In this document: piece by piece, positions 9,434 through 22,300 of the stretch
How positions within the stretch are numbered: position 1 is the first letter of the stretch
Layout of the letters: every line of letters begins with the position of its first letter
From: an uncultured Clostridia bacterium
GTDB taxonomy: Bacteria; Bacillota; Clostridia; TANB77; CAG-508
Direction of reading: 5' to 3'
NCBI GenBank assembly: GCA_947573445.1
Contig: CANPFR010000001.1
Location: 195,811-259,810, forward strand
Length of the DNA stretch: 64,000 nt
Notes under the pieces: model-generated
What the model saw: the letters and a program-made list of their open reading frames with translations, nothing else
Database searches by the model: none
Told to the model about the DNA's origin: nothing
Program-made: the position numbers and the translations under genes

Positions 9434-10291
9434 ATGGCTAAGAAAACAGGCTTAGGTAAAGGATTAGATGCATTATTTTCAATGCCAGTTGAAGAAAAAG
9501 TGGAGCCAGTAGAGGCAAATCCAGTACAAAATGGTGTTGTGAAATTGAATGTTAATGAAATAGAACCAAATGTGAATCAAGCAAGGAAAATATTTGATGA
9601 GGAATCAATTGAAGATTTAGCATCTTCGATTAAGGAATATGGTGTTATTCAACCCATTTTGGTAACCAAAAAAGAGAAATATTACGAAATTATTGCTGGG
9701 GAAAGAAGATGGAGAGCCTCCAAGAAAGCTGGTTTGGATGAGATACCAGTCATTATTAGAGAGGATGATGATAGAAGAAATCAGGAAATATCATTAATTG
9801 AAAATATTCAAAGAGAGGATTTGAATCCAATTGAAAAGGCTCGCGGAATTCGAAAATTAATGGATGAATATCAATTAACCCAAGCTAAAGTTGCTGAAAT
9901 ATTGGGAAAGAGTAGGAGTAGTATTGCAAATACTGTTAGAATCCTAAATTTAGATGAAAGAGTATTGAAATTAGCATTAGAGGGTAAACTAACAGAAGGA
10001 CATTGTAAATCTTTGATGTCAGTGGAGGATCCAGATAGACAGTATCAAATGGCTTTATACATTATTGAATCAGGGGATTCTGTACGAGAGGCAGAAAAGA
10101 AAATGAAGGTTCGCAAACAAACACCAAAAGCAGATGATAAATACATACCAATTTATAAAGATATTGAAAATACTTTTCAAGGTTTTTTTGGAACAAAAGT
10201 AAAATTGGATGCAGGCATTAAGAAAGGAAAAATTATCATTCAATATAATTCGAATGATGATTTGGAGAGAATTTTAGATTTGATAAAATAA
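9434..10291 (+). CDS. spo0J: Chromosome partitioning protein ParB/Spo0J
   Basis: ParB N-terminal motif (IIAGERRWRA) and HTH region, directly downstream of soj. Confidence 0.88.
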   Translation: MAKKTGLGKGLDALFSMPVEEKVEPVEANPVQNGVVKLNVNEIEPNVNQARKIFDEESIEDLASSIKEYGVIQPILVTKKEKYYEIIAGERRWRASKKAGLDEIPVIIREDDDRRNQEISLIENIQREDLNPIEKARGIRKLMDEYQLTQAKVAEILGKSRSSIANTVRILNLDERVLKLALEGKLTEGHCKSLMSVEDPDRQYQMALYIIESGDSVREAEKKMKVRKQTPKADDKYIPIYKDIENTFQGFFGTKVKLDAGIKKGKIIIQYNSNDDLERILDLIK

Positions 10292-10817: not shown

Positions 10818-10885
10818 GGTAATATAGTTGAAGTTTTAAAAACAAGATTTAAGAGGTTTAAATTTAATTTTTGAGATAAATCATT

Positions 10886-10929
10886 AAAAATCCAAAAAAG
10901 TGGCGAAAAAGCATTTTTTTGGATTTTTT
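10886..10929. terminator. Long AT-rich inverted repeat (AAAAATCCAAAAAA...TTTTTTTGGATTTTT), likely a bidirectional terminator
   Basis: 14-15 bp complementary arms around a 14-nt loop. Confidence 0.5.
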
Positions 10930-11403
10930 AGACATACAAAAATGGATACCAACATAAAATATAGAATTTTGAAAAAGCATTTAAAAGCAATTTAAGACGC
11001 TTTTATTTTTTTATTAGACAAAAATGACAAAAAAATGGAATAAAATAGCTAAAAAGTATTTTTATGCATTTTTTAAAACCATAAAAACACACGGTATGAC
11101 AAAATAGTGATTTTTTTACAAAATAATGAAAAGGATAAAAAGGGCATTTTATTTTTAAGGTAATATAAAAGGTCGAAAAAGTTTTTTAAATCGATTCTAG
11201 GCCATTCTGAGAAGAATAAGTTAAAAGCGTTCTAGATGCTAGGATTGATAGCCAAAATGATAAAATGTTTCAAGAGGTGCTTAGGTGATAAAAAAAGTTG
11301 TTTTTTTTAATGAATATATTATGTGATAAGAGAGAAAATAAGAAGAAATTAGGTATGATGAAATGTTTTGTGATAGAAAAAATAAAAAATCCATAATAAA
11401 AAG

Positions 11404-11433
11404 TAAAAAATATATTGACAAAACACTATCAAA
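11404..11433 (+). promoter_or_regulatory. Promoter for the tRNA-Ser pair (TTGACA-18-TAATAT)
   Basis: TTGACA at 11404-11409 and TAATAT at 11428-11433, about 40 nt before the tRNA 5' end. Confidence 0.45.
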
Positions 11434-11474
11434 TATGCTAATATATAAATAGTTGTTTTGAAAAACAACACCAT

Positions 11475-11566
<92 letters not shown>

Positions 11567-11579
11567 TTTTTAAATAAGT

Positions 11580-11670
11580 GGAGCAGTACCCAAGTGGTTG
11601 AAGGGGGCAGTTTGCTAAACTGCTAGGGTTCGTAAGGGCCGCGGAGGTTCAAATCCTCTCTGTTCCGCCA
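11580..11670 (+). tRNA. tRNA-Ser (anticodon GCT), with a long variable arm and encoded CCA
   Basis: Acceptor GGAGCAG/CTGTTCC (one G-U pair), anticodon loop TTGCTAA, and GGTTCAAATCC T-loop. Confidence 0.85.
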
Positions 11671-11675
11671 GTGTG

Positions 11676-11706
11676 AAATATAGAATTTAATTCTATATTT
11701 TTTTTG
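11676..11706 (+). terminator. Intrinsic terminator after the tRNA-Ser pair
   Basis: ATAGAAT-TTA-ATTCTAT followed by ATTTTTTTTT. Confidence 0.65.
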
Positions 11707-14700
11707 GCTTAAATAAAATATAGTGAGAGATATTGAATAAAGTATTAGATAAATTATTAAAATATATTTTTGGTAATTTATTACTAATAATAAAATAATT
11801 AAATTAAATAAAACGAAATTACTTTTACTTAGTTTTAAATTTAATTAAATATTATATAATTAATAATATAATAAAAATATAATAAAAACATTTAATATAA
11901 TAACATTATTATATTAAATGTTTTATTAATAATTATTAAAGAAAAATATTTATCTGAGAATTGATTTTTGATATTATTTAATAAATATTAATTCAAATAA
12001 AATCAATTAAAATATAAAAGACTATTTTTATTTTAATTAATATAATTTTATATGTTTTAATTTATTTTAGTTATTGAATTATAAAGAGATATACAATTTA
12101 ATAATTAATATTTATTATAAAACAAAAGGTAAATCATACTTTAAGTGGTGAGGAATTTGATTTAGTAATAAATACAAATTAATATAATGAGAAAATAGAG
12201 AAAAACAAATAAGATAACATAAGAGAGAGAAAAAACAGGTTGAAAAAAAGAATTGCATGATAGATAACAGGGAGTGTGTAAAGGGGGAAAAGGAGTGAAG
12301 GAATCAAGTAAAATAAAGAGCGGAGTTTTGATAATTAATAAATAAAATTGGAAAAAAGTGTAATTTACATAACAAAAACACTTTGCAATTACTGAAGGAA
12401 TTACTTGCCTCAAAAATCTTATAAAAATGAAGGGAAATAAAGAAAAACATTGTTTTTATATAGAGAATAAAAAGTTATACATAACACAAAATAAAAATAT
12501 GACAAAAAGACAAAAATAGTAAAGTAATTCAATTTGTTTAACTCTAGAAAGGAAAAATTAAGTCAGAATGTATATTGGATAAAACTGTAAGTATTTTCAA
12601 AAAATTTGATACAAAAGGAATGTGTGGATGAATGAATAGATAACAAAGTAAATTGGATTGGCTTGTTTTCGTATAATGCATAATTGAAAAGCATAATTAT
12701 TAAAAGAAAGAAAAAACAAATTAATTTGAAACTATAAATTAAAGAAATACAAAAATTAGGATATTTAATAAATATAAAAAATATAGTTTACAACATATAA
12801 ATAAAAAAATAATTTAAATTGAAAACAATAAAGTATATTATAAAACAAAACAGATTTAAAGATAATTTTAAAAGAACAAAAAACAGTAAAAACAATGAAG
12901 AAATAAAACAAAAAAATAGAATTGATTAAAAATAAAAATAAATTAAATATAATTTAAGAAACAAACAAAAATAAAACTAAAATAAAAAGCAAAAAAGAAT
13001 TCAAGAAATATTAATTATAAAAATAAAACAACAAACAAATAATTAAATAATAGAAATAAAATTTAATAATAAATTTTAAAAATAAATATATTTAAAAATA
13101 AATTAAAATTGAAATTAAAGAAAAGACAAATAAAAAATATTTATAAATATTAAACAATAAATAAATGATTAATAAAAATTTATTGCAAAACAAAAAACAA
13201 ATTAAAGTAAAATTTAACAAAGCATAAAATTAACTCGAATAACATAAAAATGAATACATAAAAGAGAAATTAAAATTGGATGAACAATTAAAGAATTAAA
13301 AAATTAATATATAATTTTAGTAAATAGAATAAAACAATTTTAAATACTACTATAATAGGATGAATAGGATAAACTAATTCACGAAAATTAAGTTTAGTGA
13401 AGGGTAGTGAAATGTTAAAAGTTTAGATGTAGTATAAAGAAAGAAAGAATACTATATCTTATATAAAAGGAAAAACAATAAGTGTACATAATATAGAAAC
13501 CATGTAATTATTATTAATAAATTAAAAGTATAATAATTGAAAAGCACATAGAGGAAATAGAGAAAATAATTGTTTTTTTTAGCAGTAAAAGTATGAAACA
13601 TAATATAAAACATTTTATTGACATTTTGTCAATAAAATGTTTTGCTTGAGAAACAAATGAAAGATGTAATTTATCGGGAGAATAACAAGTGAGTAAGGTA
13701 AAAATGGAAAAATGTGAAATGAAGTTTACAAATAATACCTATTTTTGTATGGAAAATAAGAATGATAAAACTAATTTTGATAAGATAAAGTATGATTCTT
13801 GAAACAGTTAAGAATATTAATGTTTATAGTATAAATTAATTTATAAAAAAATATTTTAAATTATAAGATAATATTTTTTTTAAACAATAATAAGGTTTTT
13901 GAATTTAGAAATATAGTTATATTATTTTTGTTTTATTAAAGTATAATAAAAGATTTGATATGGAAATCGGGCATGGATTTAAAAAAAGAAAATTAATTTG
14001 CTAAAATAATTAATTTCGATGGAATGATATAGAAAAATATAATAAAATGAAAAATAATTAATTAAGCAATAATGATATGAAAATAAATTCATAAAGAAAA
14101 GATTTGATTTTATATTTTATATAACATAATTTTTGTTTACAATTTTGATAATAATCTTATAAATTAATTGTGATTAAATTGATTATAGATATTATTAAAT
14201 TATAATATATTTTAAAAAATAAAAATGTATTTAAAATAATACAAATAAAAATGGTATTTATAATATTTATTTGCTTTTCTATAAATTTAAAGATAAAAAG
14301 TAAAATATTAAATGGAGATGGAAAAAGATATTTTGAATAAATATAAAAACAAGACATATATTAATATGAAAAATATTAATATATAATAAAATTATAATTC
14401 ATTTATAAAGCAAATAACATATTTACTAAAATTTTGGACAAAATAACAATATGGATAGAGTAAACAATAATTTTGTATCTAAAGATTATAGCTAAATAGT
14501 ATAAGTAATAGTAGAGGTTTGACTTTTCTAAACAGACAGAAAATAATAAAGAGATATAGAAGAAAATATTTAACAAAAGACGAGATTAGTAAGAAAAATT
14601 AGAGGATACATAACAACAAAACAAATCGGTTATTAATCAATTAAAGCATAACTCATAATCACATAGATTATATGGGGAATAATAGGTTAGTTGTTTTTTG

Positions 14701-16052
14701 TTGTATGGAAAGAATAATATACATAAAAACAAAAAGAATATTGACTAAAAGACAAAAAAGTTAAAACCTAATCAATCTTATGGATACTGCTCTTTGATAG
14801 TAAGAAGGGGATAATAAGAAGAAAATCTATGAATCAGTTAAGAAAGTATAGTCTCAATAGAGTGGTGTGGATATAAAAAAACTTAGAGTTAGTTAATTAT
14901 AAACTTATGAATTAAAATTGATAAGATAATAAAAAACAAATATTTATAAAGTGTTTAAGTCATAGTTGAAAAATTAAAAATTCTATTGAAATTATATATA
15001 TTTATAAAATACAAACAAGAATAAATTAATAAAAAATAAAATACTAAAATAAAAAAATATAATTATTTTAGCACAGAAAAATAAAAAAGTTTTAAATAAT
15101 ATAAACAAACAAAAAAGAAATTCAAAAACAAAACAAAAACTAAATAAGTGTTGGACAAAAGAAATGATAATAATATAAAACATTTTTTGAAACTAAAACA
15201 AAAATAAAAGTAAAAACAAAAAACGAAACAACAATTATTAAAAAAACGAAAAACGAAAAACAAAAAATATAAAATAAAATTGTAAAATAGTAACGAAATG
15301 AAAATAATATCTTAAAAACAGATAACACAAAAAACAAAACAACATTTAATAGCATAAAATAAAAAGTAATTAAAAATAAAAATTCACAACAAAATAATTC
15401 ATAAAATTAAAAACAAAAAACAACAATAAAAACAAATAATAAGCCGAAGTCAGATAGATTAACTTAATAAAAAAGTTAAAATATGAAACAAAAAATGAAT
15501 TGTTAATAAATAAAATATAACAAAAATGGAAATGTAACAATAGAATTGTACTAAAAATATTAATTTATATGAATAAATAATAATAAACTTCAAGAATTAT
15601 AATGGAATATAAAATATAAGTAAGGAATTTTTACTTGTATATGATTATATTTGGAGCTAAGATATTAGTAATAATATAGGAAAGTAAACTCTGATTTTAC
15701 AATTAAAATTTTTAAAATCATTCCTTATCTAGAAAGGATTTGATTCAAAAATATAAAAGAGACATAAAAAGTTATATAAGAAATTATGAATGTTTGTTGT
15801 TATGAAAAATATAGGATAATAAATATGGGAAATAACAATAAAAACGTTTTTTATTCATTTATGTTATAGGTATACATAACATAAACAAAGAGGCTGTCTA
15901 AAAGACAAAAAAGAAAGTCATTTATGATTTGATGGATTATCTAAAAGGGAAAGTATCGTCTAATATTTCTATGACAACAAATAGAATTTATATGGAGGAA
16001 ATTGAATGATATGCTATTGATAAAATCAAAATTAAGGAACAAAACTAAGACA
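11707..16052. other. ~4.3 kb stretch with no ORF in any frame, extremely AT-rich and A/purine-skewed on the + strand
   Basis: The six-frame track shows only short minus-strand ORFs rich in F, L and I, which are artefacts of the T-rich complement. Long runs are almost free of G and C. Sub-blocks alternate between A/C-rich text (such as aaaacaaaa), AT-balanced text and A/G-rich text. The stretch is flanked by terminators at 11676-11706 and 16053-16091. Confidence 0.8.
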
Positions 16053-16091
16053 AAAAACTGACTACTAAAACGTGAAGTAGTCAGTTTTTTT
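16053..16091. terminator. Bidirectional intrinsic terminator (A-run, ACTGACTACT...AGTAGTCAGT, T-run)
   Basis: 10-bp perfect stem flanked by A6 upstream and T7 downstream. It is functional in both orientations. It ends the 16101-20429 gene on the minus strand and would end any + strand transcript of the AT-rich region. Confidence 0.7.
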
Positions 16092-16100
16092 AAAATTAAA

Positions 16101-19100
16101 TTAATTAATTTTTTCTTCAATTTTATTATTAGAAATATTTTCTTCCTCAAATTTAATTTTATTATTATTAATTTTATTTTTATTTTTTAAATTATCTTTT
16201 GCAACAGTCAATAATAATTTAATTCGATTTGTTTGATTTGTTTTACTTGCTCCAGGATCGTAATCTATTGCGGCGATATTTGCATATGGATATTTTTCAC
16301 GAATTGTTTTTATAACACCTTTTCCAACAACATGATTTGGTAAACAAGCAAATGGTTGTACACAAACAATATTTGGAATTTCATGTTCAATATATTCTAC
16401 CATTTCAGCTGTTAAAAACCAACCTTCTCCAGTTTGATTTCCAATGGATAAGATATTTTTTACTTTATTTTCTAGTTCCCAAATATCACAAGGTAATAAA
16501 TAATCTTTTTTTGATTTTTTTAATGCTTTTACATTATCTTTTTCAAAAAGAGAAATCAATTTTAATACAATTTTAAATATTGTAGATTTTGTTTTATCAG
16601 TATTTAATAAAGTATTGTTTGTAATTTTATGAGTACAAATAAATTTTAAAAATCCCATAAAATCTGGAGAAATGACTTCTGCACCTTCTTGTTCTAAAAC
16701 ATCAACAATATAATTATTTCCAAAAGGATGGTATTTAATCAAAACTTCACCCACAATGCCAACTTTTGGTTTAGTGATACTTAAATCAAGTTGGATATTT
16801 TCAAAATCTTCAACAATTTCATAAATGCTTTTTTTGAATTCTGACATATTGGTAGTTGAAACCAATGTCTTACATTTTTCTAACCAATACTCAAATTTTT
16901 CTTGTGTTTCGCCTTGATGTATTTCATAAGCTCTATTTTTATAAAGCAATTTTTGAAGTAAATCACCATATAATACGCCTTTTAACATTTTTTCAATCAT
17001 TTTTATATTGATTTTAAAGCCATTTGTTTTTTCCATTCCCACAATATTAAACGACACAACAGGAATATTAGGATAACCAGCATCTTTTAATGCTTTTCGA
17101 ATAAAACCAATATAATTGGTTGCCCTACAACCACCACCAGTTTGGGACATAATTAAAGCAGTCTTATTAATATCGTATTTTCCACTTTCTAAAGCCTCAA
17201 TCATTTGTCCAACTGTCAGAATAGATGGATAACAAGCATCATTATTAACGTATTTTAAGCCTGTTTCTACGGTGTGTTCAGTACAATCTTTTAGTAATTT
17301 GATATTGTATCCAAGCGATTGTACTGCCGATTCTAATAATTCAAAATGAATTGGAGCCATTTGTGGGCATAAAATAGTATAGCCTTTTTCTTTCATATTT
17401 TTGGTAAAAAATACTTTATCAATTTCATAATTTCCTAGTTTTTCAGGTGATTTGTGAGTGTTGATTCGTTTATTCATACTAGCTAAAAGTGAACGAACAC
17501 GAATTCGAATCGCTCCCAAATTGTTAATTTCATCAATTTTTATCAAAGTATACAAATTGTCATAACTTTTTAAGATTTCTTCAACTTGATCAGTTGTAAC
17601 GGCATCAACTCCACAACCAAATGAATTTAGCTGAATCATTTCTAAATAATCATGTTTTCCAACAAAATCAGCTGCTGCATACAATCTAGAATGATAAACC
17701 CACTGGTTTACAACACGAATTGGTTTCTTAATTTCACCTTGATTTTCAATACTATCCTCAGACAACACACATAATCCAAGTGATGTAATCAAAGTATCGA
17801 TACCATGGTTAATTTCTGGGTCAACGTGATAAGGGCGTCCAGCTAAAACGATACCACGCAAGTCATTTTTTTCCATATATTGCAAAACTTCTTTTCCTTT
17901 ATCACGTATATCTTTTTTGTATTTTTGATATTCAGTCTCAGCCTTTTCAGCAGCACTTTTCAATTCTGCTTTGTTGAAATTGTAATCTTTAAATTCTGGT
18001 AAAGATGAAATAATTTTTACTAAATTTTTTGTATTATCAATTGGCAAAAAAGAATTTATGTATTTAATATTCTTCAATTCTTCCACATTATTTTTGATGA
18101 CTTCCGAATATGAAATGACAATAGGGCAATTATAATGATTATCAGCTACTTCGTGCTCTTTTCTCGAATATGGAATACAGGGATAAAATATCGTTTTTAT
18201 GCCTTGGTTCAGCAAACTCATAATATGCCCGTGTGCTAATTTAGCTGGATAACAGACTGATTCTGAAGGCATTGATTCAATCCCTTTTTCATAAGTTTTA
18301 CGGTTGCTTTTTTCCGAAATAATCACACGGAAACCGAGATTTGTAAAAAACGTAAACCAAAATGGATAATCTTCATACATATTCAAAACTCTAGGAATGC
18401 CAATAGTTCCACGGTGGGCTTCTGATTCTTCCAAAGGCTGATAACTAAACAAACGTTCAAATTTGTATTGATAAAGATTTGGTAAATCATGATTTTGAGA
18501 AACTTCACCACTTCCTTTTTCACAACGGTTTCCAGAAATGAATTTTTTTCCATTATCAAATTGGTTAATAGTAAGTAAACAGTGATTTTCACAACCATTA
18601 CAACGAGTATGTGTAATTTGAATGTTCAATTTATCAAGCTCTTCTGCCTTTAAAATAGTGGAATGATATTCCATATCCATATTTGCGATAAATTGCTGTT
18701 TTGCCAATAATGCAACACCGTAAGCACCCATTAAACCAGAAATATTTGGTCTTACAACATCACGTTCTACAATGGATTCGAAACTACGAAGTACAGCATC
18801 ATTATAAAAAGTTCCACCTTGTACTACGATGTGTTCTCCTAAAGTATTGATATCTCTAACTTTCATAACTTTTTGAATTGCATTTTTAATAATTGAATAA
18901 GAAAGTCCAGCAGAAATATCACCAACTGAAGCACCTTCTTTTTGGGCTTGTTTAATTTTGGAATTCATGAAAACGGTACAACGTGACCCTAAATCCACAG
19001 GTGTTTTTGCGTTTAAGGCTTCTTGTACAAATTCCTGAATTGAAATTCCTAAACTTTTGGCAAAAGTTTCCAAAAATGAGCCACATCCAGAAGAACAAGC

Positions 19101-20429
19101 TTCGTTTAACATAATATTATCAATTGTATTATCTTTAATTTTAATATATTTCATATCCTGGCCACCAATATCGATGATGCTGGAAACATTAGGTTCAAAG
19201 GATTTTGCAGCAGTATAATGTGCAATTGTTTCAATTTCGTTCAAATCAATATTCAATCCAGTTTGGATTAATTTTTCACCATAGCCTGTAACGCCACTAA
19301 AACGTAGCTTTGCACCAGCAGGTAAAACCAAATATAATTGCTGTAACATCTGAATAACGGATGTAAGTGGGTTGCCATTATTATTTCGGTATAGGGAATA
19401 CAAAATTTCGTTTTTCTCATTAATTAAAACTAATTTTGTAGTTGTAGAACCTGCATCAATTCCTAAATAGCAGTTTCCAATATAACCTTCTAAAGGTGCT
19501 TCGTTAACAGTATGTTTGGCATGTCTTTCTTTAAAATCCTCATAATCATGTTTGGTTTCAAATAATGCAGGTAATGGTTTGCTTTCTGTATAATTTGATT
19601 TTTCAAATTTTTTGAGATTATTTTTCAACGTTTTTGTAGAGATGACTTCTGTTTCAACAGAAGAAAAAGCGGCACCTGTTGCAACCAATAAATGAGCATT
19701 TTCTGGAACGATGATTTCATCATCAGAAAGTTCAAGTGTTTCGATAAAACGTTTACGTAGTTCAGATAAATAGTTTAGAGGACCACCTAAAAAAGCGACT
19801 TTCCCTCGAATTGGCCTTCCGCAAGCCAATCCAGAAATTGTTTGATTAACAACCGCTTGAAAAATAGAAACCGCAATGTCTTGTTTTGCTGCACCTTCAT
19901 TGATTAGGGGTTGAATATCTGTTTTGGCAAAAACGCCACAACGTGAGGCAATTGGGTAAATTGTCTTGTAATCTTTGGCAAGTTCATTTAAACCAGTAGT
20001 ATCTGTGTTTAGCAAAGAAGCCATTTGGTCTAAGAAAGCACCAGTCCCACCAGCACAGGTACCATTCATACGTTGTTCGATAAATTTATCAAAATAAATG
20101 ATTTTTGCATCTTCTCCACCAAGTTCAATTACTACATCGGTTTGAGGAATCAAATTTTCCACTGCTTTTTTACAAGCAATCACTTCTTGAATAAAAGAAA
20201 TATTTAATAATCGTGAGATTTCTAATGCACCGGATCCAGTAAGGGACATTGTAAATTCTGCATTTGGATAATCTTTCACAAATTTCAATAAAACATCAGA
20301 CAGTGTTTTTTTTGTATCTGAGAAATGCCTAGTATAACTAGCATAAATTGGCTTTAATTGCTCATTTAAAATCATAATTTTTATGGTAGTAGAGCCAATA
20401 TCAAGTCCAACGTGTAATTTATTTTTCAT
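16101..20429 (-). CDS. Large fusion protein of the CoA-substrate-specific enzyme activase / 2-hydroxyacyl-CoA dehydratase family, with two BadF/BadG/BcrA/HgdC-type ASKHA ATPase domains plus a dehydratase-like domain
   Basis: 1442 aa with two acetate/sugar-kinase-fold phosphate-1 motifs (GLDIGSTTIK at the N-terminus, LGIDAGSTTTK mid-protein), Cys clusters, and a GGTFYNDAVLRSFE-type activase motif. Similar ~1400-aa activase fusions are typical of Clostridia, from memory. Confidence 0.6.
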   Translation of the reverse strand: MKNKLHVGLDIGSTTIKIMILNEQLKPIYASYTRHFSDTKKTLSDVLLKFVKDYPNAEFTMSLTGSGALEISRLLNISFIQEVIACKKAVENLIPQTDVVIELGGEDAKIIYFDKFIEQRMNGTCAGGTGAFLDQMASLLNTDTTGLNELAKDYKTIYPIASRCGVFAKTDIQPLINEGAAKQDIAVSIFQAVVNQTISGLACGRPIRGKVAFLGGPLNYLSELRKRFIETLELSDDEIIVPENAHLLVATGAAFSSVETEVISTKTLKNNLKKFEKSNYTESKPLPALFETKHDYEDFKERHAKHTVNEAPLEGYIGNCYLGIDAGSTTTKLVLINEKNEILYSLYRNNNGNPLTSVIQMLQQLYLVLPAGAKLRFSGVTGYGEKLIQTGLNIDLNEIETIAHYTAAKSFEPNVSSIIDIGGQDMKYIKIKDNTIDNIMLNEACSSGCGSFLETFAKSLGISIQEFVQEALNAKTPVDLGSRCTVFMNSKIKQAQKEGASVGDISAGLSYSIIKNAIQKVMKVRDINTLGEHIVVQGGTFYNDAVLRSFESIVERDVVRPNISGLMGAYGVALLAKQQFIANMDMEYHSTILKAEELDKLNIQITHTRCNGCENHCLLTINQFDNGKKFISGNRCEKGSGEVSQNHDLPNLYQYKFERLFSYQPLEESEAHRGTIGIPRVLNMYEDYPFWFTFFTNLGFRVIISEKSNRKTYEKGIESMPSESVCYPAKLAHGHIMSLLNQGIKTIFYPCIPYSRKEHEVADNHYNCPIVISYSEVIKNNVEELKNIKYINSFLPIDNTKNLVKIISSLPEFKDYNFNKAELKSAAEKAETEYQKYKKDIRDKGKEVLQYMEKNDLRGIVLAGRPYHVDPEINHGIDTLITSLGLCVLSEDSIENQGEIKKPIRVVNQWVYHSRLYAAADFVGKHDYLEMIQLNSFGCGVDAVTTDQVEEILKSYDNLYTLIKIDEINNLGAIRIRVRSLLASMNKRINTHKSPEKLGNYEIDKVFFTKNMKEKGYTILCPQMAPIHFELLESAVQSLGYNIKLLKDCTEHTVETGLKYVNNDACYPSILTVGQMIEALESGKYDINKTALIMSQTGGGCRATNYIGFIRKALKDAGYPNIPVVSFNIVGMEKTNGFKINIKMIEKMLKGVLYGDLLQKLLYKNRAYEIHQGETQEKFEYWLEKCKTLVSTTNMSEFKKSIYEIVEDFENIQLDLSITKPKVGIVGEVLIKYHPFGNNYIVDVLEQEGAEVISPDFMGFLKFICTHKITNNTLLNTDKTKSTIFKIVLKLISLFEKDNVKALKKSKKDYLLPCDIWELENKVKNILSIGNQTGEGWFLTAEMVEYIEHEIPNIVCVQPFACLPNHVVGKGVIKTIREKYPYANIAAIDYDPGASKTNQTNRIKLLLTVAKDNLKNKNKINNNKIKFEEENISNNKIEEKIN

Positions 20430-20795
20430 ATTGTATACACCTTCTTTTCAATAGTATGCTAAAATGAACATTTTAACATAATTATATATTATAATTTTTG
20501 TCGCAATTTGTCAATTGGTAATTTTGAGAAAAGTGGAAGAAGTTGGGATAATGAAGAAATAATATTTTATGCAAACTATAATGAATGCAACTTGTTGACA
20601 ATGGAAGAAATTCTTGTGACGAAAGATCCTTAGATTAAAGTAAAAGAGGCTACTTTAATTTTGAGGTATGTCTTTTGAAATGGAAACTTAATAAAAAATC
20701 ACATGCAAATGCATTTAAACTGGCATGTGATTTTTTATTTAGCTACAATAAGAACGGCCTGAGAGAAATATTAATATAGGGAATACAGGAAAAAG

Positions 20796-21470
20796 TCAAA
20801 CTAATATATTTACATTTTCAACACATATCTCAAAATAAACCAATAATGACACCCACTTCCGAAGCATCACAAAAATATGAAAAATTTCGTGAAATCCGAA
20901 ATCTTTCCATTTGGTTTTGGGTAGCTTCAACCAATAAATAATTCCGCCAATGGTGTAAAAAATACCACACAAAATGAGCCATAAAAGGCCATGTAACAAA
21001 TTAGCTTGCTGAAAAGATTGATAAAGAGGATAAATTGCAAAAATACCCATCCAGCCCATAATTAGATAAATCGTGGTAGTTAATGCACGCGGAGCCTTGA
21101 TCCAGATAGCAGAAAAAATTGTTCCTAATAGTGCAAATATCCACAAAACGCCGAAAATACTCCAACCCCAAGGTCCACGTAAAGGACCAAGGCAAATCGG
21201 TGTATAACTAGAGGCGATTAAAATGTAAATCATAATATGGTCAAATTTTCGAAACACATTGATTCCTTTCTGACTAATGTTTAACCAGTGATATAAAGTA
21301 CTGAATAAATACAATAAAAATAGTCCAATTCCAAATATCGTAAAGGATACAACATCGTATCCATCGCCCCAAATTGCTGAAAAAACGATTAAAACAATCA
21401 TTCCAGCTAAAGCCAAAACCGCACCAATACAGTGGGTTAGGCCACTTGTAAAATCTCTAACTTTTGCCAT
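20796..21470 (-). CDS. Hemolysin-III / PAQR-family 7-TM protein with its C-terminus disrupted by a 1-nt insertion
   Basis: 7-TM composition with conserved His residues. The last ~20 codons read LRKWVSLLVYFEICVENVNILV. Removing one C at about 20861 (sense CTTcGGA) restores the family-typical ending MLGSGCHYWFILRYVLKM, with a stop at 20810. Confidence 0.6.
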   Translation of the reverse strand: MAKVRDFTSGLTHCIGAVLALAGMIVLIVFSAIWGDGYDVVSFTIFGIGLFLLYLFSTLYHWLNISQKGINVFRKFDHIMIYILIASSYTPICLGPLRGPWGWSIFGVLWIFALLGTIFSAIWIKAPRALTTTIYLIMGWMGIFAIYPLYQSFQQANLLHGLLWLILCGIFYTIGGIIYWLKLPKTKWKDFGFHEIFHIFVMLRKWVSLLVYFEICVENVNILV

Positions 21471-21687
21471 AAAACCTCCGTTTTTTTAAATTCTACCTAT
21501 ATCATATTCGATTTTTAAGTCTTTGTCAATACAAATAATATAAAAAAACACATAAAATAGTTTTTAAAACTAGATTCGACAAAATTTGCTATAAAATAGT
21601 ACCAGAAATGTTTGAAGAAATTAAAAAATGATTAGCATAAAATGTACAGACTTGAATATGATTTACGAGAAAGGGAAGGGTTGTGCT

Positions 21688-22209
21688 ATGAAAAAGTGGT
21701 TAGTGGTTATATTAGTGATTTTAACAGTATTAATTTGTGGGATTTTATTATTTAATACAAATGTTGAGGTGGAATATGTTCCTGAAACAGAGATTGCAGA
21801 GGTAGACATGCGAAAAACAATGATTACATTGTATTTCCAAAATGTGGAGAATAAGGAGTTGCAGAAAGAAAGCCGATTAATCGATTCCAAAGATTTATTA
21901 CTGGATCCATATGCAGAATTGCTAAATATGTTAATAAATGGTCCAGAAAGTGATTTCCTTCAAAAAACAATCCCAGATGGCACAAAGTTGTTAAATGTGG
22001 AATTGGTGGGGGATTGTTTGCAGGTAAATTTGTCAAAAGAATTTGTTGAAAATAGCTCAAATGATGAAGTTGAAAGGAGAAATTACATAAATTCAATTGT
22101 CAATACTGTGACAGAATTAAATGAAGTAAATGCAGTTAAAATTTTAATAGAAGGTGAAGAGGCAGAAGGATTTACAGAGAATTTTCAAAAAGAAAAAGAA
22201 AACAATTGA
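21688..22209 (+). CDS. GerMN-domain protein (germination/sporulation-associated lipoprotein-like)
   Basis: Signal/TM anchor MKKWLVVILVILTVLICG, then the GerMN pattern (TLYF...LLNGP...LNVELVGDCLQVNLSKEF...KILIEGEE). The ORF is open from 21628 and the RBS supports the start at 21688. Confidence 0.65.
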   Translation: MKKWLVVILVILTVLICGILLFNTNVEVEYVPETEIAEVDMRKTMITLYFQNVENKELQKESRLIDSKDLLLDPYAELLNMLINGPESDFLQKTIPDGTKLLNVELVGDCLQVNLSKEFVENSSNDEVERRNYINSIVNTVTELNEVNAVKILIEGEEAEGFTENFQKEKENN

Positions 22210-22300
22210 CAAAATTTAGCAAATATGATATAATAAAATAAAGAAAGAGCCATACTTTTATTAAGTGTGGTCTTTTTTTATAAAAAATAAGGGAAAAAAG

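Follow-up and report, generated by a model that had tools for sequence, protein, structure and literature searches.

What occupies the 4.4 kb between a pair of serine tRNA genes and the gene that converges on them in this stretch of clostridial DNA, and does it serve any purpose there? The 64-kb window (the whole stretch analysed) contains at 11671–16100 a gene-free interval of 4430 nt, which runs from the end of tRNA-Ser(GCU) (11670) to the stop codon (16101) of a gene for a 1442-aa protein of the 'CoA enzyme activase' type, called the activase below, which approaches the tRNA-Ser pair from the right. The interval slightly exceeds the 11707–16052 given in the original prediction, an earlier reading of the window that described an unusual non-coding stretch close to the origin. 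Both parts of that description stand: the block is the sole gap of at least 800 nt without a 100-codon frame in the window, and the gene order rnpA-yidC-jag-mnmE-mnmG-rsmG-parA-parB-DUF4446, followed by the two tRNA-Ser genes, places it in the origin-proximal region. Nor is there, as had been stated, any open reading frame (ORF) above ~85 codons, the longest start-to-stop frame (83 aa) being an F/L/I-rich one on the T-rich strand. The block is explicable without any function, and we consider that it is probably genuine chromosomal DNA, non-genic, dispensable and essentially unconstrained, a filler at the convergent tRNA-Ser/activase junction. For a compact genome the observation stands out statistically. 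The best-supported explanation is ordinary in kind and unusual in degree, that is, in its kilobase scale, in its recurrence across a clade and in its differences between near-identical strains.

The tRNA-Ser/activase junction in relatives

Related loci came from two sources, species-representative genomes searched with ParB and metagenome contigs searched with the activase protein; 80 loci (L082–L161) were obtained with activase orthologues of 69–90% identity. The relatives are uncultured gut Clostridia, such as MGBC101636, the rabbit 'Lapin' metagenome-assembled genomes and Clostridium sp. CAG:389. In them the tRNA-Ser(GCU)/activase interval ranges from 32 nt to 4.9 kb or holds ordinary genes (Table 1), and the tRNA-Ser pair borders it also in L004, L005, L085, L088, L093, L097, L105, L112 and others. 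The synteny comparison that the original prediction had proposed as a check therefore gives a mixed answer, with ordinary genes or nothing at this position in some relatives and comparable blocks in others. In most of the relatives' blocks the A-rich strand is the tRNA strand.

The block is variable and dispensable. L100, L104, L105, L108, L110, L151 and L156 are natural relatives without it, and the variation reaches down to the level of strains: in the activase tree L097, L155, L099, L109, L101, L100, L104, L105 and L108 form a tight group with 95–99% DNA identity in the activase gene, and this group mixes block-less members with a 1.1-kb block and a 2-kb variant, with intervals between 32 nt and 2 kb. 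Differences among these 95–99% identical strains already begin in the final ~15 codons of the activase and take in its terminator, and since the variable tract includes both, the polymorphism is not a clean site-specific insertion. Between L105 (14298/14331) and L097 (8353/9469) identity is 95–96% on the activase side and 86% on the tRNA/ParB side. Such a step marks the junction as a recombination boundary and points to recombinational replacement rather than clean insertion.

The two terminators that flank the block belong to its neighbours, one to the tRNA operon and the other to the convergent activase gene, and a hairpin like the latter lies directly between the activase stop codon and the tRNA in the block-less L105 and L104. 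The hairpin described earlier as a plus-strand terminator closing the region is thus present, but it is bidirectional and kept in relatives without a block, so that it is neither exclusive to the plus strand nor a property of the block. Two further palindromes lie inside the block (Table 1). The one at 11880–11928 gives a sliding-window fold z < -3 on both strands, and the one at 13606–13643, which may be a relic bidirectional terminator, sits near a change of composition, with strong AT skew upstream of it and weak AT skew downstream.

Is the block real? The original prediction had listed a low-complexity assembly artefact among its candidates, in which case low-complexity sequence would have been joined wrongly or rebuilt at a wrong length to give the 4.4 kb. 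Assemblies do break at this locus: contigs of the relatives very often end here (of 80, 42 stop within 1.3 kb on the block side of the activase gene and 11 on the opposite side; Fisher p = 3e-7), and near-identical contigs diverge abruptly near their ends, so for this clade the junction is in practice a systematic breakpoint of short-read metagenome assembly. However, six independent contigs from other samples (L004, L085, L093, L112, L097 and L088) span equivalent ORF-less blocks from the tRNA pair to the activase gene, both junctions in the window run straight into conserved flanks, and without a high-scoring tandem array or an internal duplication above shuffles there is little in the block to collapse. 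A mis-join or mis-sizing in the window is thus very improbable, and a pure artefact is, on the contig evidence, unlikely for the phenomenon rather than for the exact length found here.

The L140 clade (L140 14374–24226; also L135, L136, L138, L139 and L143) has a different arrangement, in which the activase gene adjoins gyrA. The stretch from gyrA to gyrB contains two conjugative-looking ORFs, one of 597 aa that may encode a VirB4-type ATPase and one of 186 aa. In L140 it also contains an ORF-less 2.1-kb block at 20098–22256, whose A-rich strand is the sense strand of the genes next to it; filler of like kind is thus present at a second locus. Separately, L119 (1–1661) and L125 (312–1655) contain ORF-free stretches of ~1.3–1.7 kb about 8 kb upstream of the activase gene, with GC 0.24–0.25, no A/T skew and no Rfam match.

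Divergence and base composition

The block lacks sequence constraint. A comparison of its divergence with that of third codon positions rests on one pair that spans it, L093 and L112, whose blocks (2703 and 2706 nt) are collinear, with ~65% identity and gaps in over 100 columns. Per alignment column there are 0.585 matches versus 0.482 ± 0.010 in local shuffles, so that homology is detectable and weak. In the activase genes of the same pair first codon positions are 95%, second 98.5% and third 65.6% identical, so that divergence in the block is no less than at third positions. The block of the window aligns with those of L004, L005, L085 and L093 no better than shuffles do, and against its closest relative, L082 (gene 84% identical), homology stops 22 nt past the stop codon. 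No GC-containing 11-mer is common to three block families. Hundreds of ~57% block matches from permissive blastn were rejected as composition artefacts, since default scoring and local shuffles leave only noise, and a divergence of L098 from L103 that seemed faster than synonymous was set aside, because ~195 nt are identical there and then split abruptly near the contig ends, as assembly noise would.

What remains, then, is composition. In 500-nt windows across the block GC is 0.11–0.24 and AT skew reaches +0.52, and over 11707–16052 purines make up 0.635, with G at 0.113 and C at 0.059, so that the extreme AT content and A/purine skew noticed earlier are real. For the wider gap 10818–16100 the values are A 0.50, T 0.31, G 0.125 and C 0.067. 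Four-fold degenerate sites, counted over all window genes of at least 200 aa, have A.537, T.278, G.123 and C.061 in plus-strand genes and, in plus-strand coordinates, A.434, T.374, G.142 and C.049 in minus-strand genes; the composition of the block lies within the range of these sites on the same strand. Short spacers in other parts of the window are alike (GC 0.16–0.22, A 0.45–0.51), also where they separate minus-strand genes. On the plus strand the least constrained sites thus have A>T and G>C irrespective of gene direction. The original prediction had taken the skew for the mark of the sense strand of a transcript, and this argument fails: since the skew equals that of four-fold sites and of ordinary spacers, those between minus-strand genes among them, it is no evidence for a transcript.

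For Staphylococcus aureus it was argued that the A>T of intergenic DNA in Firmicutes does not represent the mutational equilibrium (PMC3174206), and in view of this argument we restrict our claim to the block resembling weakly constrained DNA of the same genome. The A excess at four-fold sites in the window departs from that S. aureus conclusion (PMC3174206), and the occurrence of A>T together with G>C at four-fold sites of both gene orientations resembles a replication-strand asymmetry with an A excess.

Within the block the composition is patchy (Table 1). About one third of it has GC 0.09–0.13, significantly below the 0.18 of four-fold sites, while the G-containing islands have GC 0.20–0.24. 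Of the two polypurine islands that had been reported, the tract at 12180–12330 is a clear one (78% purine, 26.5% G) and 14500–14620 is weak as such (69% purine).

Tests for a gene, an RNA, an origin or a mobile element

Could the block once have been, or still be, a gene? The longest stop-to-stop frames are 41–48 codons on the plus strand and 66–97 on the minus strand. Reassignment or read-through of a stop codon was rejected, as ignoring any single stop gives at most 191 codons on the plus strand and at most 408 on the T-rich minus strand, and these maxima arise only when TAA, the commonest stop in such AT-rich DNA, is the one ignored. The period-3 power of G+C is 1.6 in the block versus 93 and 73 in the flanking genes, and 0.2–2.1 in every 450-nt window of the block versus 2.1–10 in genes. 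Pfam gave no match in the three plus-strand frames of the block, blastx against 4888 ORFs of the relatives found nothing except the block's own spurious ORF, and tblastn with AsnB, YlmH, patatin, MetK and IS200 proteins found no remnant in it; the ORF-less blocks of the relatives have no protein remnant either.

These results bear on the reading in which the block is a graveyard of pseudogenes, where chromosomal genes (patatin-like, MetK, AsnB/YlmH) or an element using the tRNA-Ser hotspot would have been eroded by AT-biased mutation. It draws on the intact genes that occupy the same interval in relatives, on the IS200-type transposase of L005 and the conjugative-looking ORFs of L006 and L009, which, after tRNA-Ser(GCU), consist of a series of small membrane proteins and large ORFs, on the conjugative-looking pair that adjoins the 2.1-kb block in the L140 clade, on the palindromes at 11880–11928 and 13606–13643, which could be the 3' ends of lost genes, and on the GC of the G-containing islands, which is closer to coding values. 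However, protein searches of the window block and of the relatives' ORF-less blocks recover no remnant, no residue of codon periodicity is left, the block has neither a copy of the tRNA 3' end nor a phage or plasmid match, and about a third of it undershoots neutral GC, which decay from coding DNA (~30% GC) would approach from above. We regard this origin for the block as a whole as unlikely. Among the four candidates of the original prediction a 'heavily decayed locus' nevertheless comes closest, although what the evidence favours is turnover of filler and not a gene whose decay could still be recognised.

The resemblance in size to an rRNA operon, which had also been pointed out, is a coincidence, as Rfam gives no signal and block length in the relatives varies from 0 to 4.9 kb. 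At gathering score Rfam finds in the region the two tRNAs alone, at E up to 5 it adds terminator-like noise only, with no rRNA signal, and on the loci of six relatives it gives no match. A degenerate rRNA operon or a known large RNA was rejected on this blank in the window and the six relatives, and the covariance-model search suggested earlier has been run and shows no structured RNA besides the tRNAs. Conserved sequence and covarying structure are the hallmarks of large structured bacterial RNAs. The block shares with OLE, GOLLD, ROOL, HEARO and rRNA operons that it is a long gene-free Firmicute stretch, bracketed by terminators and of roughly similar size, but in contrast to the large structured RNAs it has no covariance-model match and is unconserved even between close relatives. 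The long non-coding RNA that the original prediction had proposed is for these reasons unsupported, and composition alone could lead annotators to miscall such an RNA. Promoter-like sites in the block number 55, versus 57.6 ± 8.2 in shuffles.

The proposal of an origin-proximal structural or nucleoid-organising element fares no better. The block has no parS site with up to three mismatches allowed, and two one-mismatch DnaA-box-like sites in 4.4 kb do not form a cluster, so that an origin or partition element was rejected; near-identical strains, moreover, are without the block. Curved DNA was rejected as well, AA/TT or AAA phasing at 10–11 bp being not beyond noise, and the A-tract periodicity that had been proposed for inspection is thus computed and shows no 10–11-bp phasing.

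A mobile element inserted at the tRNA would be another obvious explanation. No second copy of the 3' end of tRNA-Ser(GCU), as a 24-mer or a 16-mer with up to three mismatches, is found in the block, and the block carries no integrase or transposase gene. The only matches in a search of phages and plasmids were stretches of ~67% identity to an AT-rich insect symbiont, which reflect composition alone. An integrated element was rejected on the lack of an att-like tRNA repeat and of phage or plasmid similarity. The locus as such is nevertheless similar to tRNA-linked islands in its variable interval straight after a tRNA, in the varied cargo seen in relatives and in the drop of flank identity from 95% to 86%, and the presence/absence polymorphism near a tRNA by which such islands are recognised is found in the 95–99% identical clade. 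In contrast to them, the block in the window carries neither cargo genes nor an integrase or transposase, and the 3' end of the tRNA is not directly repeated in it.

Proposed growth by duplication and the ~96-nt element

How could kilobases of such DNA accumulate? We propose that the interval would grow by tandem duplication and slippage of AT-only sequence, a stage that is still 'fresh' in relatives, that gene gain and loss at the junction would also alter it, and that AT-biased point mutation and indels would then randomise the added DNA until composition alone remained. The fresh stage can be seen directly after the activase terminator of L155 (14380–14930), where ~550 nt of pure A/T satellite with units of the AATAATT/AAATAATT type are found; Tandem Repeats Finder (TRF) reports this array as 575 nt long, with a 15-nt unit present 38.8 times (score 732), and on the tRNA strand it is T-rich and so of reverse polarity to most blocks. 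L115 has TAATAAA x36, and AT-only arrays occur at the locus in L155, L115, L092, L005, L097, L153 and L140; the satellites among the relatives have units of 7–22 nt. Tandem duplications of 88–190 nt are present in L005 (190 nt x2), L097 (114 nt x2.7), L153 and L140. The very AT-rich sub-blocks in the window would in this scheme be decaying AT-only arrays, and a GC of 0.09–0.13, below that of four-fold sites, is what one expects of arrays decaying 'upwards'; the G-containing islands would consist of DNA that is older or of another kind. In view of the genes found in relatives and of the two palindromes that look like relic terminators, loss of genes is probably a further contributor. In the window block itself repeated 12-mers that are dispersed number 23, versus 6.9 ± 3.7 expected, and an excess is also present in L004 and L088. 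An ancient tandem duplication of ~2.2 kb, to which a two-fold pattern of composition seemed to point, was rejected, as global alignment gives z of -2 to -0.3 versus shuffles; a collinear chain of words is weakly raised for this pattern (28 versus 19.8 ± 4.2).

One feature of the block has the look of something more specific. Three copies of a ~96-nt element (Table 1) align without gaps, with 57–60 of 96 positions identical, versus 17–30 of 60 in the flanks. Each has the boxes (A)TGGGRAATAA, GTTTTT and TATACATAA-N21-AAAGACAAAAA in this order and at fixed spacing, and the last of these motifs occurs three times in the window, always within the block, and in 0 of 100 shuffles. No further copy exists in the window or in 162 related loci, and a scan of viral contigs gave a single match that lacks the upstream box and is chance-like. 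Two of the three copies can be read as 30-codon ORFs; a family of 30-codon small proteins was rejected, since mismatches fall evenly on the three codon positions and stop codons interrupt the frame in copy 3. A structured RNA was rejected on consensus energies of -2.0 and -0.6 kcal/mol for the two strands. The element may have been left behind by old duplications or may act as a small functional site, and it is the main reason why we keep a small place for a functional reading of the block.

Several points weigh against the block being unconstrained filler grown by duplication. The invariant boxes at fixed spacing in the three ~96-nt copies are not predicted by pure neutrality. The match with four-fold sites shows only that the skew is no greater than in weakly constrained DNA, and not that its origin is purely mutational. 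The best TRF score in the window block is 78, from weak short arrays only, and nearby word repeats there are not above a local Markov model; with no array and no alignment of the 2.2-kb halves, duplication in this block has to be deduced from the relatives and from the dispersed words. Lastly, bacteria normally delete useless DNA, and a block in nearly every lineage of the window's clade could mean that it is maintained. For the window block we infer both the mode of growth and the absence of any function.

Another reading gives the block a function that is defined by composition. It could be an A-rich, fast-evolving long RNA, for example a sponge for proteins binding A-rich RNA, or a DNA spacer whose AT-richness or length matters, one that insulates the tRNA operon from the activase gene converging on it or offers nucleoid proteins a landing pad near parAB. 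Such a role would account for blocks persisting in nearly all lineages of the clade despite complete turnover of sequence, for the consistent polarity in most relatives, for the near-equal lengths of the L093 and L112 blocks at ~35% divergence, for the invariant boxes and fixed spacing of the ~96-nt copies and for the terminators that bracket the region. However, the interval is only 32 nt in strains whose flanking gene is 95–99% identical to that of block carriers, blocks range in length from 0 to 4.9 kb, the L155 array has the opposite polarity, promoter-like sites are at shuffle level, and A-tract phasing, parS and a DnaA-box cluster are all absent from the block. In addition, the blocks have no motifs in common, none of the relatives has the ~96-nt element, whose copies yield no consensus RNA structure, and the skew can be explained without a transcript. 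We therefore consider this kind of function quite unlikely. There is also a slim chance that the block is a maintained element, a counterpart of satellite DNA that a family-level clade of gut Clostridia keeps at this origin-proximal junction through continual duplication and turnover, in which function would lie in AT-richness, length or an A-rich transcript, and not in sequence, with the ~96-nt element as its present functional core, perhaps a promoter or a site bound by protein. If it were true that the block is maintained for its composition, it would represent a new kind of bacterial chromosomal element.

Unconstrained filler of this kind has partial parallels. Known bacterial variable-number tandem repeats (VNTRs) and minisatellites usually span tens to a few hundred bases, are often found in genes or promoters and serve as phase-variation switches. 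The locus resembles them in the head-to-tail AT-only arrays of the relatives (7–22-nt units, up to ~39 copies of a 15-nt unit) and in its length variation between strains, and differs in that the arrays lie in a gene-free interval, where they seem to accumulate into kilobases of degenerate DNA, and in that the window block is no longer a tandem array. Pseudogene-derived and non-functional spacers of AT-rich, reduced genomes, as in Buchnera (Degnan, Ochman & Moran 2011, PMC3164680), are, like the block, ORF-less, very AT-rich, fast-evolving and variable in length, with a composition drifting to that of unconstrained sites. Those of Buchnera differ from it in being mostly short, in having lengths that correlate across genomes and in often containing conserved functional blocks (PMC3164680), whereas here a single locus extends to 4.4–4.9 kb, no block is conserved between lineages, near-identical strains differ and no pseudogene is recognisable. 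The indel-prone non-coding DNA of Plasmodium falciparum (PMC5389722) is, like the block, 80–90% AT and low in complexity, and it is reported to approach 90% AT. This is an analogy only, since the Plasmodium case is eukaryotic and genome-wide and ours concerns one locus in a compact bacterial genome.

Compact bacterial genomes are thought to purge useless DNA fast. A locus that repeatedly gains and loses kilobases of gene-free DNA derived from AT-only sequence would thus represent unusual dynamics of junk DNA in a free-living gut bacterium. It would also offer a natural system for studying the balance of duplication and deletion and the neutral strand asymmetry of Firmicutes.

Table 1. Features of the window and contents of the tRNA-Ser(GCU)/activase interval in relatives. 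Positions are those of the window unless a locus is named.
Feature	Position or locus	Strand	Remarks
tRNA-Ser(UGA)	11475–11566	+	left anchor; ARAGORN, Rfam tRNA 53.5 bits
tRNA-Ser(GCU)	11580–11670	+	ARAGORN, Rfam; variable interval begins right after it in the window and all relatives
Block, no gene	11671–16100	strand-less	~17–19% GC; A-rich on + (leading) strand; sequence unconserved
Intrinsic terminator of tRNA operon	11675–11707	+	AT-only hairpin then T8; -8.5 kcal/mol, z = -4.2
Near-pure A/T sub-block	11750–12150	.	GC 0.09, A/T skew almost nil; below four-fold 0.184, binomial p = 2e-7
AT-only palindrome, ~22 bp	11880–11928	.	terminator-like on both strands; -16.2 kcal/mol, z = -5.9
G-containing island 1	12150–12700	+	includes polypurine tract 12180–12330
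~96-nt element, copy 1	12430–12525	+	boxes TATACATAA-N21-AAAGACAAAAA
A-rich desert 1	12750–13250	+	GC 0.108, AT skew ~0.4; degenerate short-period tandem traces
Perfect 18-bp palindrome	13606–13643	.	17 pairs found; -18.1 kcal/mol, z = -6.5
Second low-skew, very AT-rich sub-block	13750–14450	.	GC ~0.13
~96-nt element, copy 2	14672–14767	+	
A-rich desert 2	14950–15550	+	GC 0.15, AT skew up to 0.52; (AAACAA)n-like traces
~96-nt element, copy 3	15825–15920	+	
Bidirectional intrinsic terminator	16052–16090	.	-17.4 kcal/mol on +, -18.3 on -; A-run on one side, T-run on the other
BcrAD_BadFG + DUF2229 protein, 1442 aa, 'CoA enzyme activase' type	16101–20429	-	right anchor; Pfam
Interval of 32 nt	L104, L105, L108		L100 comparably short
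Interval of ~150 nt	L110, L156		
Interval of 1.1–1.5 kb	L097, L088		ORF-less
Interval of 2.7 kb	L093, L112		ORF-less
Interval of 3.3 kb	L004		without credible ORF
Interval of 4.9 kb	L085		ORF-less
Interval with AsnB-like and YlmH-like genes	L130		
Interval with patatin-like gene	L152, L111–L128 clade, L122, L142		
Interval with MetK-like gene	L153		
Interval with single unannotated ORF	L155		
Interval with IS200-type Y1 transposase	L005, 11757–12251		directly after tRNA-Ser(GCU); Pfam
Interval with ORFs resembling a conjugative element	L006, 11874–20837; L009, 11924–12792		no family-library check

Two observations concern the rest of the window. At its left end the region upstream of rnpA (1–1519) has no long ORF and contains four DnaA-box-like sites with one mismatch (91, 209, 506 and 955), and it is probably part of the oriC/rpmH region. 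Exact copies of the window's ParB (9434–10291) and of its HlyIII-family protein (20796–21470) are found on scaffolds of ~1 kb in the ENA metagenome ERZ28569135 ('BATT21-1'), so that the organism has been seen, in fragments, in at least one other assembly.

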